Positions 36,034 through 40,448 of a DNA stretch of 64,000 nucleotides are shown one piece after another. Source of the stretch: Bacillota bacterium (GTDB lineage: Bacteria; Bacillota; Limnochordia; Darwinibacteriales; DTU012); assembly GCA_012840925.1 (NCBI GenBank), contig DUVS01000029.1:124202-188201 (forward strand). Reading direction: 5' to 3'. Both the position numbers and the translations under genes were made by a program. Below the pieces are notes generated by a model. That model worked only from the letters and a program-made list of their open reading frames with translations, did no database searches and was not told where the DNA came from. Every line of letters begins with the position of its first letter. The stretch's first letter is position 1.

Positions 36034-36723
36034 TTATTTGGATTTTAACAGCGGCACCGCCAAATGATTTGCAAACTCAAAATTAGCTGCCAACCATGCT
36101 TCAAACCGCTCTACTGCCTTCGTCCGCCGGATTCGCTCCCACAGGCGGGATCGAATTTGAACATCACCCTCTTCAAGATGAGGTGCTAAAGTGATTACAG
36201 AATCCGAACCTGGATTTGATGCGGCCGGTTCCAGATAACACAGTGGAGGAAACAATACACACCACCAATTGTCACCTTTACCTGCGCCAATGATCACCCG
36301 CAGCGCTTCATATTCTCCTGCTGGCAGGAAAACATCTCCATACTCCCGGTCAGGGAAAGCATACGAGCCAAATTCCAAACGGATCTCATAGCCATACCCC
36401 GCACGGGTAACTTCTACCAATGCTGCATCTTGAATCCTCAGCCAATGATCGGCGATCTTTTGTTTGGCTTCTGACTGATCAGTAACATCCACAAACAACT
36501 CTCTGGTTTCAGCCAAGATCGCATCCCTGACTCTAAGCTTTAGATCCTGGTCGTCAGGAGTGTTGCTGTTGGCGATCACATGCAGCCGCACCAGATTGGT
36601 GCCATTATAGGCATAGACGTCATTGGGCTGGCAGATAACAAGTCCTACCCGGCATCCAATTATCGTTAGCAAAGCTATCAGACAGCCGACGACGATACGA
36701 GTTGACAAACCTTTCCTGTTCAT
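36034..36723 (-). CDS. spoIIR: Stage II sporulation protein R
   Basis: Signal peptide, VRLHVIANS...DQDLKLRVRD, FPDREYG, GDNWWCVLFPPLC. Confidence 0.96.
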   Translation of the reverse strand: MNRKGLSTRIVVGCLIALLTIIGCRVGLVICQPNDVYAYNGTNLVRLHVIANSNTPDDQDLKLRVRDAILAETRELFVDVTDQSEAKQKIADHWLRIQDAALVEVTRAGYGYEIRLEFGSYAFPDREYGDVFLPAGEYEALRVIIGAGKGDNWWCVLFPPLCYLEPAASNPGSDSVITLAPHLEEGDVQIRSRLWERIRRTKAVERFEAWLAANFEFANHLAVPLLKSK

Positions 36724-36738
36724 ACCCCTCTACCTCCT

Positions 36739-37515
36739 TCAGGATGTTGCCAAAAAGCGTCTTAAGTGCTTTAAAGCCGCCTTTTCCAACCGTGAAACCT
36801 GAGCCTGGGAAATGCCGATTTCCTCTGCCACTTCCATTTGGGTCCTGCCATCGAAAAACCGCATCGTCAGGATTAGTTTCTCCCGTTCACTAAGCCTTTC
36901 CATTCCTTCTTTGATCGATACACCTTCTAGCCAGTTACCATCTATGTTTTTTTCATCGCGGATCTGATCCATGACAAAGATGGGATCGCCACCGTCATGA
37001 TATATAGGTTCAAATAATGATATTGGTTCCTGAATTGCATCAAGGGCAAAAACAATATCCTCTCGGGGAATCTGCAGTTCCTCTGCGATTTGGCTTATCG
37101 TCGGTTCTTGTGAATGCTTGTTTGCCAAGGTATCCCTAACTTGCAGCGCTTTATAGGCAATATCCCGCAATGAACGGCTGACTCTAATCGGGTTGTTGTC
37201 TCTCAGATACCTTCTGATCTCACCAATGATCATGGGCACTGCATATGTGGAGAATTTGACATTCTGACTGAGATCAAAATTATCAATAGCTTTCATCAGG
37301 CCAATGCAGCCAACCTGAAACAAGTCATCCACATATTCACCGCGGTTGTTAAACCTCTGGATGACGCTGAGTACCAACCTTAAATTGCCCTGCACCATCT
37401 CTTCCCGGGCTGCCCGGTCGCCTTGACTAATTCTAGCCAGCAGCTCCCGCATCTTCTTATTGGTCAAGACCGGAAGTTTAGAGGTGTTCACGCCGCAGAT
37501 CTCTACCTTGTTCAT
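36739..37515 (-). CDS. sigG: Late forespore sigma factor sigma-G
   Basis: MNKVEICGVNTSKLPVL N-terminus, NLRLVLSVIQRF, RYLRDNN; start moved to ATG 37515. Confidence 0.97.
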   Translation of the reverse strand: MNKVEICGVNTSKLPVLTNKKMRELLARISQGDRAAREEMVQGNLRLVLSVIQRFNNRGEYVDDLFQVGCIGLMKAIDNFDLSQNVKFSTYAVPMIIGEIRRYLRDNNPIRVSRSLRDIAYKALQVRDTLANKHSQEPTISQIAEELQIPREDIVFALDAIQEPISLFEPIYHDGGDPIFVMDQIRDEKNIDGNWLEGVSIKEGMERLSEREKLILTMRFFDGRTQMEVAEEIGISQAQVSRLEKAALKHLRRFLATS

Positions 37516-37547
37516 AGGGACCTCCCCTTGATTAGACGTTACAGCAT

Positions 37548-37577
37548 CAGTATTGCCACAATCTTGCGGTTCTATTC
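37548..37577 (-). promoter_or_regulatory. sigma-F/sigma-G promoter of sigG
   Basis: GAATA-N15-GGCAATACTG, about 30 bp upstream of the start codon. Confidence 0.7.
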
Positions 37578-37581
37578 GGCA
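37575..37581 (-). promoter_or_regulatory. Spo0A box
   Basis: TGCCGAA is a perfect match to TGNCGAA; lies between divergent sigG and spoIIGA. Confidence 0.55.
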
Positions 37582-37677
37582 CCGCCAAACTTTGGGAAAT
37601 GTTGCCGGACAAAGAAGGAAAACAAGGATCCGGCTACAAATATTCCCGTATAGGTCAAAAACCAAAGGAGGGATCGC

Positions 37678-38658
37678 ATGCCGGGATACATCATTTATAT
37701 TGATGCACTGATCCTGCGGTTAGCAGCTAATTTTTTCTTTGAATTCATCCTGTTGTGGGCAACTGCTGAAGCTACCCGCTCCCGTACCACCCGGCTCCGA
37801 TTGGCACTGGGGGCCTTAATTGGCACACTGCATCATCTTTTGTTCCTGTTGTCAAGTTACAGTCTGATCCCTTTCTACGGTTTACTGCGTTTCTTTCCGA
37901 CACTGCTTGTGGTATCCATCATCATGGTTTTGGCAACGTTCTACCCCGCCAATAAAGGAAAGCTGCTGCGAATCCTGGCTTATTTTTATGGCATTGGTTT
38001 CTTAAGCGCCGGTGCCGGGATGGCTGCAGCCTACATTTTTGGAACCGAGCTAAACCCCCAATCTACCGTAGGCGTGCTGGTTTCGATTGCGGTAACATTA
38101 ATCATTGCCGAGCTCGGTTGGGGTGTTGTTCAAAGAAGAATCTATCAGCATCTTTACCAACTGCCCATCAGTGTCGCTTATAATGATAAAGAAGTGTGCC
38201 TTACAGGCTTGATTGACACAGGAAACCATCTCAAAGATCCCCTCACTTTACAACCGGTAATAGTTGTGGAACAGAATGCAGTCCTACCTTTATTTGACCC
38301 CCAAACAGCCGCGCTTATTCAAGAAATGTGTTCAGGCAATCTCGATGCCATAACTGATTACGCCAATACTCCTATCGCCATGCGGCTGCGCATGGTCCCA
38401 TTTCATACCATCGGTGTCCAATCGGGAGTATTAATTGGTTTCAAACCGGACCACATTCTGATTCGTCAACACAAGGAGCAGCTGCCGGTTACAAATGCGA
38501 TTATCGCTATCTACCAGCACCAGCTTGACCCCAATGGAGAATATCAAGCTCTGCTCCCTCCAGAACTGCTGGAAAAACCGGCTGCACTAACATCACGGGT
38601 GAAATCGATTCAAGGAGGGGAAACCAGCCATGCGGCTCAATCTGAACGTGAAGCTTAG
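37678..38658 (+). CDS. spoIIGA: Pro-sigma-E processing aspartic peptidase
   Basis: [18 protein letters not shown]-terminal TMs, catalytic [20 protein letters not shown]; overlaps the sigE start. Confidence 0.95.
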
Positions 38659-39352
38659 AGTAAGACTGTTGGTTATCAGGCTGCTGACAAAAATTAGGAT
38701 TACTCCTCCGATTCACTATGTGGGTAGTAGTGAAGTCTTGCCTCCTCCACTGACTGCTGACGAGGAAAGTGAGTTGCTGAACAAATTAAGGCAGGGTGAT
38801 ATGCAGGTTAAGTCTCCTCTGATTGAACACAACCTAAGACTGGTGGTGTATATTGCCCGTAAGTTCGAAAACACAGGGATCTTTATAGAAGATTTGGTTT
38901 CCATTGGCACTATTGGACTGATCAAAGCAGTAAACACCTTTGATCCTGATAAGAACATCAAGTTGGCAACTTATGCATCGCGCTGCATCGAAAATGAGAT
39001 TTTGATGTATCTGCGCCGTACAAGCAAAATTCGTGCAGAAGTCTCTTTTGATGAACCTCTTAACACTGATTGGGACGGAAATGAACTAGTCTTGGCCGAT
39101 GTAGTGGGAAGTGACAGCGATGTGGTTAAATATATCGAGGAAGAAGTGGATAAAGCGCTCCTTAAGCAAGCAATGCAGAAGCTCACCGGGAGAGAAAAGA
39201 AGATTATGGAACTGCGCTTCGGACTGAACAATGGGGTTGAAAAGACTCAGCGAGAGGTTGCTGACCTGTTGGGGATTTCCCAGTCCTATATTTCACGCCT
39301 TGAAAAGAAAATTTTAAAGAAACTGCAGCGGGAAATCAGGAAAATGAACTAA
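38630..39352 (+). CDS. sigE: Early mother-cell sigma factor pro-sigma-E
   Basis: Basic/hydrophobic pro-sequence, [40 protein letters not shown]. Confidence 0.96.
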
Positions 39353-39353
39353 C

Positions 39354-39384
39354 AAAAAAAAGAGGCCGCAGCCTCTTTTTTTTT
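39354..39384. terminator. Bidirectional terminator between convergent sigE and ftsZ
   Basis: A8-GAGGC-CGCA-GCCTC-T9. Confidence 0.88.
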
Positions 39385-39401: not shown

Positions 39402-40448
39402 TTACTTGCGCCGCAAGAATGCCGGAATGTCCAGATCTTCACTGGTAAAAGGCCTGAGTTCTAGCTCAAGTTCGGCAGGCTTAGCCTCCCGTTCAGTCAC
39501 CTCAAAACCGGTGGCGATGACAGTGACCACAAGTTGATCCTGTAAATCCTCATTGATTACCGCTCCGAAGATGATATTCGCATCAGGATCGGCTGTCTCA
39601 GCCACAATTCCGGCTGCTTCATTGACTTCAAACAAGCTGAGATTAGAACTACCTGACAAGCTGAGCAAGATACCTTTTGCTCCTTTAATGGAAGCTTCCA
39701 AAAGGGGACTGGAGATAGCTTGCTTGGCAGCCTGAACAGCCCGGTCGTCGCCGGATGCTTGTCCAATGCCCATCAAAGCAGAGCCGGCATTGGTCATAAT
39801 GGCTCGCACATCGGCAAAGTCAAGATTAATCAAACCGGGGATCGTTATTAAATCAGATATTCCCTGTACGCCTTGGCGCAAAACATCATCAGCAATACTG
39901 AACGCTTCGAGGATACTAGTCCTTTTTTCAACCACCTGTAAAAGCCGGTCATTGGGAATTGTAATCAAAGTATCAACCTTTGCCTTCAGCATTTCAATTC
40001 CTTTTTCAGCTTGCAGCTGCCGCCTCCGGCCTTCAAAAGAAAAAGGCTTTGTAACAACACCCACAGTTAATGCAGAGCATTCCTTGGCAATCTCAGCAAT
40101 AACGGGTGCTGCACCGGTTCCTGTTCCTCCTCCCATTCCAGCTGTGATGAACACCATATCAGCGCCGTCCAGGACAGCACGAATCTCTTCGCGGCTTTCC
40201 TCTGCAGAACGCTGGCCAATGTCTGGATTGGAACCTGCCCCTAAGCCTTTCGTCAGCTTTTCACCAAGTTGGATCTTATCAGTGGCCTCAGAAAGCAGCA
40301 ATGCTTGAGCATCTGTATTCATTGCAACGAAGTGCACACCTTGAAGATTGGCGCGAATCATGCGATTGACAGCGTTACTGCCTCCTCCGCCAACACCGAC
40401 CACCTTTATATTGGCATACTGGCTACCCTCAAGCTCAAACTCAAACAT
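39402..40448 (-). CDS. ftsZ: Cell division protein FtsZ
   Basis: [15 protein letters not shown] tubulin signature, INLDFAD, C-terminal LDIPAFLRR. Confidence 0.99.

Follow-up and report, generated by a model that had tools for sequence, protein, structure and literature searches.

The spoIIGA-sigE operon, which encodes the pro-sigma-E processing aspartic protease SpoIIGA and pro-sigma-E itself, is inverted in place between ftsZ and sigG in all spore-forming genomes examined from the bacterial class Limnochordia. The arrangement came to light in a stretch of 64,000 nucleotides (hereafter the window) from a Bacillota bacterium (GTDB lineage Limnochordia; Darwinibacteriales; DTU012) that corresponds to positions 124,202 to 188,201 of contig DUVS01000029.1 in the GenBank assembly GCA_012840925.1. 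Between 34.4 and 44.7 kb the minus strand of the window carries, in the order of transcription, mraY, spoVE/ftsW, murA, ftsQ/divIB and ftsZ and, after a gap, sigG, spoIIR, ylmC/ymxH, nrdR, pgeF and ftsK. The gap between ftsZ and sigG holds two plus-strand genes, spoIIGA and sigE (Table 1). Compared with the canonical architecture, in which ftsZ, spoIIGA, sigE and sigG lie on one strand, the gene order is kept but spoIIGA-sigE occupies the opposite strand. The bias of the larger open reading frames (ORFs) of the window (39 of 44 with at least 200 amino acids are on the minus strand) and the negative GC skew of the plus strand across the locus region show that the operon opposes its neighbours and, presumably, replication. 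All genes are ordinary members of known families, and what is new is their arrangement at a well-known locus.

The distribution of this layout within the class was established by locating spoIIGA or sigE in the relatives, fetching the surrounding DNA and placing six query proteins by tblastn. The order spoIIR(-) sigG(-) spoIIGA(+) sigE(+) ftsZ(-) recurs in all 30 order-level relatives, which represent three families, in all 40 genomes from 11 other spore-forming families of the class, with GC contents between 47 and 74%, and in 18 further class genomes. The total thus amounts to 88 of the 88 class genomes that carry these genes, distributed over 14 families, and both junctions are located on one contig in 81 of them. 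Three of the genomes are closed, one of which (G084) comprises 3,817,036 bp with about 71% GC in the 9.7-kb locus. The adjacency of sigG and spoIIR was found in every class genome examined. An assembly or binning artefact might be suspected because the source genome is a metagenome-assembled genome (MAG) of 56 contigs and 1.72 Mb, but this explanation is effectively refuted: 88 independent assemblies, including three single-contig ones, show an identical layout, both junctions of the window lie deep inside a contig of 190 kb, and the intergenic sequence that spans the junction region contains conserved promoter elements. The spoIIGA-sigE inversion is accordingly fixed in the class as a whole, with no exception among the spore-forming members examined.

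One co-directional spoIIGA-sigE-sigG string was encountered in the class (L249). It is located on a contig of just 1784 bp (G030:C137), represents a second copy in a bin with 3% contamination and encodes a SpoIIGA with 27% identity to that of the window; it is most likely a contaminant contig, which was exposed by its gene order. No sigE, spoIIGA or sigG was detected at the thresholds used in four genomes from two families of the window's own order (G009, G012, G014 and G016; families f2 and f5). These genomes are 79-98% complete and have a size of 2.7-4.2 Mb, and they probably represent asporogenous lineages nested within a spore-forming order.

The situation outside the class is documented by two samples, namely, 60 families sampled evenly across the remainder of this GTDB phylum and 71 loci from named genomes outside the class, detected by means of SigE and including Desulfoscipio, Sporotomaculum, Brevibacillus, Thermoactinomyces, Tissierella, Clostridium and Oscillibacter. 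A spoIIGA-sigE operon opposed to ftsZ is present in none of the 60 families and in none of the 71 loci. In 54 of the 60 families sigG follows sigE co-directionally, and in 34 of them spoIIR is located right after sigG, which documents that the sigG-spoIIR adjacency is old and widespread and not special to the class. Among the 71 loci, sigG follows sigE on the same strand in 42 cases, and it is unlinked, i.e. absent from the at least 2.5 kb seen downstream of sigE, in 20. Flips on the sigG side were observed in three lineages outside the class. In two Eubacteriales MAGs (L082, L101) sigG alone is turned and converges with sigE 79 nt downstream, and in a representative of family f68 (L159, G187) sigG-spoIIR is flipped about 3 kb downstream. 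These cases are independent rearrangements of the same locus; they resemble the class layout in that a strand change uncouples sigG from spoIIG transcription, but it is sigG or sigG-spoIIR that was turned and not spoIIGA-sigE, and their distribution is narrow.

These results bear directly on a preliminary description of the window, which had been made from its sequence alone and had placed spoIIGA-sigE on the plus strand at 37678-39384 between the minus-strand genes ftsZ and sigG. The interval proved to be exact, and the strand assignment is corroborated by the ORFs and their NCBIfam matches. The same description had regarded the operon as an old and fixed in-place inversion that might serve as a lineage marker, and it had proposed to tabulate its orientation across the phylum. 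Both ideas hold up in that tally, with 88 of 88 genomes in the class versus none of the 60 outside families and 71 other loci, and hence with the inversion in every spore-forming class member examined and in no outside lineage. No mention of the layout was found in the searchable literature, including a Firmicutes sporulation-gene survey from 2022 that covers Limnochorda pilosa and a study of dcw-cluster synteny from 2023 that covers Limnochordia, with most subscription journals lying outside the reach of this search.

The most economical account of the layout is a single inversion, because flipping spoIIGA-sigE alone reproduces the class arrangement exactly, and the canonical string continues collinearly on both sides. 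The ancestral string was likely the co-directional order ftsZ-spoIIGA-sigE-sigG-spoIIR. In all probability, one ancient inversion of about 1.9 kb turned spoIIGA-sigE together with its own promoter inside the block dcw-ftsZ-[spoIIGA-sigE]-sigG-spoIIR-ylmC (dcw, division and cell wall cluster) and was fixed close to or at the root of the class, leaving three separate transcription units. Only the spoIIGA-sigE segment would have been flipped, with both flanks untouched; the AGGAAT-N16/17-TAnnAT promoter of the operon would have been carried along, and the sigma-F/G-type promoter of sigG would have stayed in place. The first of the resulting units would comprise dcw and ftsZ. The second would be spoIIGA-sigE, which is predicted to run head-on to replication and, in the window's family, to end at a terminator in common with ftsZ. 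The third, sigG-spoIIR, would be expressed from the conserved sigma-F/G-type promoter. Mother-cell and forespore promoters would accordingly fire back to back over about 160-200 bp, with no transcription passing between the units.

Two alternative histories of the locus have to be weighed against the single inversion. One of them takes the divergent layout as ancestral and the co-directional order ftsZ-spoIIGA-sigE-sigG as derived; since there are two states only, the polarity depends on the root, and the Limnochordia take a deep position among the Firmicutes in some published trees. We consider this reversal of polarity very improbable, because the co-directional order is found in all 60 sampled families of the phylum and also in the Bacilli-type Brevibacillus, Thermoactinomyces and Polycladospora, and because spoIIGA-sigE is the sole part of the block in the class that opposes replication and its neighbours. 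The other alternative assumes two or more steps, e.g. overlapping larger inversions or a translocation combined with an inversion. The absence of surviving breakpoint signatures would be in agreement with such a scenario, as would the chromosomal position of the locus, which in the closed genomes G078, G083 and G084 (loci L134, L135 and L138) is 165-185 degrees from dnaA and thus near the presumed terminus. Symmetric inversions are common near the terminus. Nevertheless, all families retain the exact canonical neighbours in their orientation, with ftsQ-ftsZ at one end and sigG-spoIIR-ylmC at the opposite end, and no intermediate arrangement was seen among the 88 genomes, which makes a multi-step origin quite improbable.

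Several points weigh against the proposed single inversion and the promoter assignments connected with it. The polarity rests on an outgroup comparison with GTDB groupings, and if all other spore-formers together formed the sister group of the class, parsimony alone would leave the ancestral layout undecided. Two successive larger inversions with a common endpoint would give the same picture. The ends of the inversion retain no trace of a mechanism in the form of repeats or a recombinase. The AGGAAT at the -35 position of the spoIIG element differs from the sigma-A consensus (TTGACA), and canonical Spo0A boxes (TGNCGAA) are not conserved, as they occur at 8 of 68 class loci compared with 4.8 expected and have no fixed position. 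Finally, the promoters and operons described here are predictions from sequence.

At most class loci the divergent control region between sigG and spoIIGA measures 135-205 bp, with a full range of about 80-300 bp when start codons are extrapolated, and both of its promoter-like elements are conserved. On the sigG strand of the window, the element GAATA-N15-GGCAATACTG is located 32 nt before the sigG ATG. Motif and distance to the start codon are those of a putative sigma-F/G-type promoter (GYATA or GnATR, N15, GGnnAnAHTR; consensus partly from PMC5942855), and the 15-bp spacing agrees with that reported for Clostridia (PMC5942855). On the sigG strand, the pattern G-N-A-T-R, N14-16, GGnnAnAHTR was found at 53 of 68 class loci, with 0.1 expected; on the other strand it was found at none of the 68. 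The same element is present upstream of sigG in most canonical, co-directional families, thereby suggesting that sigG kept its own forespore promoter.

The second element is located on the spoIIGA strand. An alignment of the 30 genomes of the order reveals an invariant AGGA(A/T)(A/T), followed after 16-17 nt by TAATAT, and the class consensus of this putative spoIIG promoter is AGGAAT-N16/17-TAnnAT. The strict motif occurs at 31 of 68 class loci (1.4 expected) and at one of the 68 on the other strand, and looser forms were seen by eye in most families. A similar element, AGGAAT-N16/17-TAnnnT, is also found upstream of spoIIGA in several co-directional lineages (L151, L157, L164, L174, L182, L186, L206 and L209), which is indicative of a promoter that existed before the inversion and was relocated along with the operon. 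The classic spoIIG pattern, with TGACA, about 22 nt and TATAAT, is seen instead in other co-directional families. The -10 hexamer of the class element (TAATAT, TAGTAT, TATAAT or TAGAAT) is sigma-A-like. A sigma-H reading of the AGGAAT element was rejected on account of this -10 and of a spacing that fits only with a non-GAAT sequence.

The comparison with Bacillus subtilis illustrates both the likeness and the difference of the two systems. In B. subtilis, spoIIG is transcribed from a promoter with TTGACA, a 22-bp spacer and TATAAT, accompanied by Spo0A boxes. A promoter of this Spo0A-activated type, with Spo0A boxes and TTGACA about 22 bp from TATAAT, was not recognized upstream of spoIIGA in the class, the TGACA-N22-TATAAT pattern being seen only in some co-directional families; the class differs from B. 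subtilis in its inverted operon, in the AGGAAT at the -35 position and in the lack of conserved Spo0A boxes. A Spo0A box-like TTCGGCA at 37575-37581 (TGCCGAA on the minus strand), which overlaps the -35 of sigG, is present in only two of five genus genomes and probably reflects chance. Both systems have the same three genes directly after ftsZ, a sigG with its own sigma-F/G-type promoter and a translational coupling of spoIIGA and sigE. In B. subtilis, however, spoIIR is unlinked, whereas it follows sigG in the class, and all genes are co-directional. A read-through transcript from the spoIIG promoter reaches sigG there, but its translation is blocked (PMC5942855). Co-directional families of the phylum with the sigG-spoIIR pair (34 of 60, e.g. 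the Carboxydocellales- and Desulfoscipio-type loci L036 and L041) have the same genes, neighbours and sigG promoter element as the class, and some co-directional families share AGGAAT-N16/17-TAnnnT upstream of spoIIGA with it. They differ in the opposite orientation of spoIIGA-sigE and in a gap of 150-2000 nt with a terminator-like hairpin, which usually separates sigE and sigG.

At the other junction, sigE and ftsZ converge, and their stop codons are 49 nt apart in the window. The intervening sequence contains a predicted bidirectional intrinsic terminator with two perfectly complementary arms of 13 nt (39354-39366 and 39371-39383) and a 4-nt loop. Its 71-nt context folds on both strands (-18.9 and -24.2 kcal/mol), and each strand reads a hairpin followed by a U-tract, in accordance with the GC-rich hairpin, upstream A-tract and downstream T-tract of a terminator that acts in both directions. 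Similar sigE/ftsZ hairpins are present in relatives from the window's family and order but not class-wide, and in other class families the two stop codons are just 6-30 nt apart without a hairpin. The symmetric bidirectional terminator claimed in the preliminary description is thus well supported as a prediction for the window and fails as a feature of the class, and its restriction to family and order indicates that it is not an obligatory part of the design. In family f12 (L128-L130) and at the loci L126 and L118, the convergent stop codons are separated by only 6-13 nt without a hairpin, so that the transcripts of sigE and ftsZ must overlap or be stopped otherwise.

The same description had reported neither inverted repeats nor a recombinase at the ends of the operon, and the inverted-repeat search and the identities of the neighbouring genes agree with this. 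No inverted repeats bracket positions 37516 and 39401, and no recombinase adjoins spoIIGA-sigE, whose immediate neighbours are sigG and ftsZ. The sole long inverted pair (36769-36816 and 39272-39319, 71% complementary) reflects the region-4 homology of the paralogues sigG and sigE. A site-specific invertible switch can be ruled out, given that flanking inverted repeats and an adjoining invertase are missing and that a single orientation occurs in all 88 genomes. Phase-variable invertible segments, which possess inverted repeats and an invertase, share with the class locus only the short inverted segment; the orientation of the latter is fixed.

The regulatory consequences of the inversion follow in part from geometry. 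Transcripts from the spoIIG promoter cannot enter sigG-spoIIR, nor can dcw/ftsZ transcripts enter spoIIG, and the abolition of read-through in both directions, which had been anticipated from the window, is borne out by the strands of the genes. The accompanying proposal of a natural experiment on the timing of the sigma cascade was overstated, as the read-through is dispensable in B. subtilis, hairpins are common in the relatives, and sigG is often unlinked or flipped. Expression of sigG in B. subtilis does not depend on the spoIIG-sigG read-through transcript, whose translation is blocked by a large hairpin (PMC5942855). The functional weight of the lost read-through is probably small, and the fitness effect of the inversion was most likely neutral to mildly insulating.

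An adaptive scenario nevertheless deserves consideration. It proposes that the inversion rewired the timing of the sigma cascade by keeping spoIIG transcription, which sets in prior to division and persists in the mother cell, out of sigG-spoIIR, thereby avoiding SpoIIR synthesis in the wrong cell and premature processing of pro-sigma-E. In B. subtilis, SpoIIR that is made in the wrong cell triggers pro-sigma-E processing. The position of spoIIR directly behind sigG in the window and throughout the class is compatible with this scenario, and so is a comparison of co-directional relatives with and without spoIIR after sigG, in which phylogeny was not taken into account. Terminator-like hairpins between sigE and sigG were found in 27 of 34 relatives with spoIIR after sigG versus 7 of 20 without it (Fisher p 0.0016), and the median sigE-sigG gap is 270 nt versus 110 nt (Mann-Whitney p 5e-6). 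The longer gaps and hairpins suggest selection to keep spoIIG transcription out of sigG-spoIIR. However, longer gaps also offer more opportunity for chance hairpins, and the same relatives achieve their insulation by a terminator. Since most of them have a sigE-sigG terminator, the class ancestor probably possessed a barrier already, and the inversion may have added little. The dispensable and untranslated read-through transcript of B. subtilis (PMC5942855) and the 20 of 71 other loci with an unlinked sigG also argue against an adaptive rewiring, which is possible but, in our view, rather unlikely.

The three closed genomes also clarify the relationship of the locus to replication. In all of them the flanking genes are co-oriented with the replication fork, and spoIIGA-sigE is read head-on to it. 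Expression after replication would entail little head-on cost, and the inversion may have been tolerated for this reason. B. subtilis relies on an origin-proximal spoIIR for early expression in the forespore. Given that the class locus is far from the origin, the timing of sigma-E activation may differ from that in B. subtilis. A more far-reaching proposal, which is speculative and in our estimate improbable, concerns the SpoIIR signal itself. If spoIIR were expressed solely as the second gene of the sigG operon, at the 165-185 degrees from the origin determined in the closed genomes, the forespore of the class could not send this signal until translocation of the chromosome was almost complete. 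The inversion would then keep the spoIIG promoter from transcribing spoIIR early, and the completion of translocation would gate sigma-E activation, unlike the situation with the origin-proximal spoIIR of B. subtilis.

The main value of the inversion is that of a rare genomic change, together with its pointer to an uncharacterised type of spoIIG promoter. As a clean marker it joins 14 sampled families, mostly uncultured MAG lineages from digesters and sediments, with closed high-GC genomes, and it can be used for the quick assignment of contigs and the recognition of contaminants, as exemplified by L249. It also documents that the strongly conserved order ftsZ-spoIIGA-sigE-sigG is not required: the physical linkage survives, but co-transcription does not, which fits the dispensability of the sigG read-through in B. 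subtilis. Limnochorda pilosa is cultivable, and the back-to-back promoters, the sigG-spoIIR operon and the AGGAAT element are open to study in this species.

The individual genes were identified by comparing the ORFs of the window with NCBIfam profile hidden Markov models (HMMs), judged by their curated equivalog cut-offs (Table 1). FtsZ, SigE, SigG and SpoIIR exceed these cut-offs, as does YlmC. The alignment of SigE covers residues 5-239 of 240 and includes the pro-sequence. A longer, TTG-started ORF of sigG that reaches 37665 is unsupported, as the HMM alignment begins at residue 52 of the long ORF. spoIIR is probably co-transcribed with sigG, judging from their spacing. No Rfam family matched the sequence between 35000 and 41500 (E up to 0.1).

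Table 1. Coordinates of the genes and predicted control elements around the inverted spoIIGA-sigE operon. Positions refer to the window; scores are given in bits against the curated cut-off.
Feature	Position	Strand	Details
spoIIR	36034-36723	-	TIGR02837, 159.6 vs 151.9; 15 nt downstream of sigG
sigG	36739-37515 (ATG at 37515)	-	TIGR02850, 501.4 vs 457
Divergent control region, sigG to spoIIGA start codons	37516-37677	both	162 bp
Putative sigma-F/G-type sigG promoter	37548-37577	-	GAATA (37573-37577), 15-nt spacer, GGCAATACTG (37548-37557)
Putative spoIIG promoter	37616-37643	+	AGGAAA (37616-37621), 16-nt spacer, AAATAT (37638-37643)
spoIIGA (pro-sigma-E processing aspartic protease)	37678-38658	+	TIGR02854, E 5e-54, 183.6 vs 209.55
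sigE (pro-sigma-E)	38630-39352	+	NF006158, 398.2 vs 339; TIGR02835, 393.5 vs 348.6
Predicted bidirectional intrinsic terminator of sigE (+) and ftsZ (-)	39354-39383	both	A8-GAGGC-CGCA-GCCTC-T9
ftsZ (terminal dcw gene; converges with sigE)	39402-40448	-	TIGR00065, 445.8 vs 295.2

A further element, CATATAnTGGTAATAAT, was observed about 25-45 nt upstream of spoIIGA in many co-directional lineages (loci L153-L208), where it is located between the TGACA-N22-TATAAT promoter and the start codon. The CATA core within it is reminiscent of a -10 of the sigma-E/K type and may point to autoregulation of the operon. Within the class of the window, nothing of this form was seen apart from CATAG(A/C), which occurs in two families of high GC content, f13 and f14.

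SpoIIGA is the only one of the five proteins of the locus that scores below its equivalog cut-off. Its match to TIGR02854 is nevertheless full-length (residues 5-297 of the protein versus 2-292 of 293 in the model), its translation contains the aspartic-protease motif DTGN (GLIDTGNH), and its gene is located directly upstream of sigE, whose start it overlaps by 29 nt. The model under-scores the SpoIIGA proteins of Limnochordia, whose identity to non-class SpoIIGA is just 23-38%. As a consequence of such sub-cut-off scores, automatic annotation may leave spoIIGA without a name in the genomes of this class.

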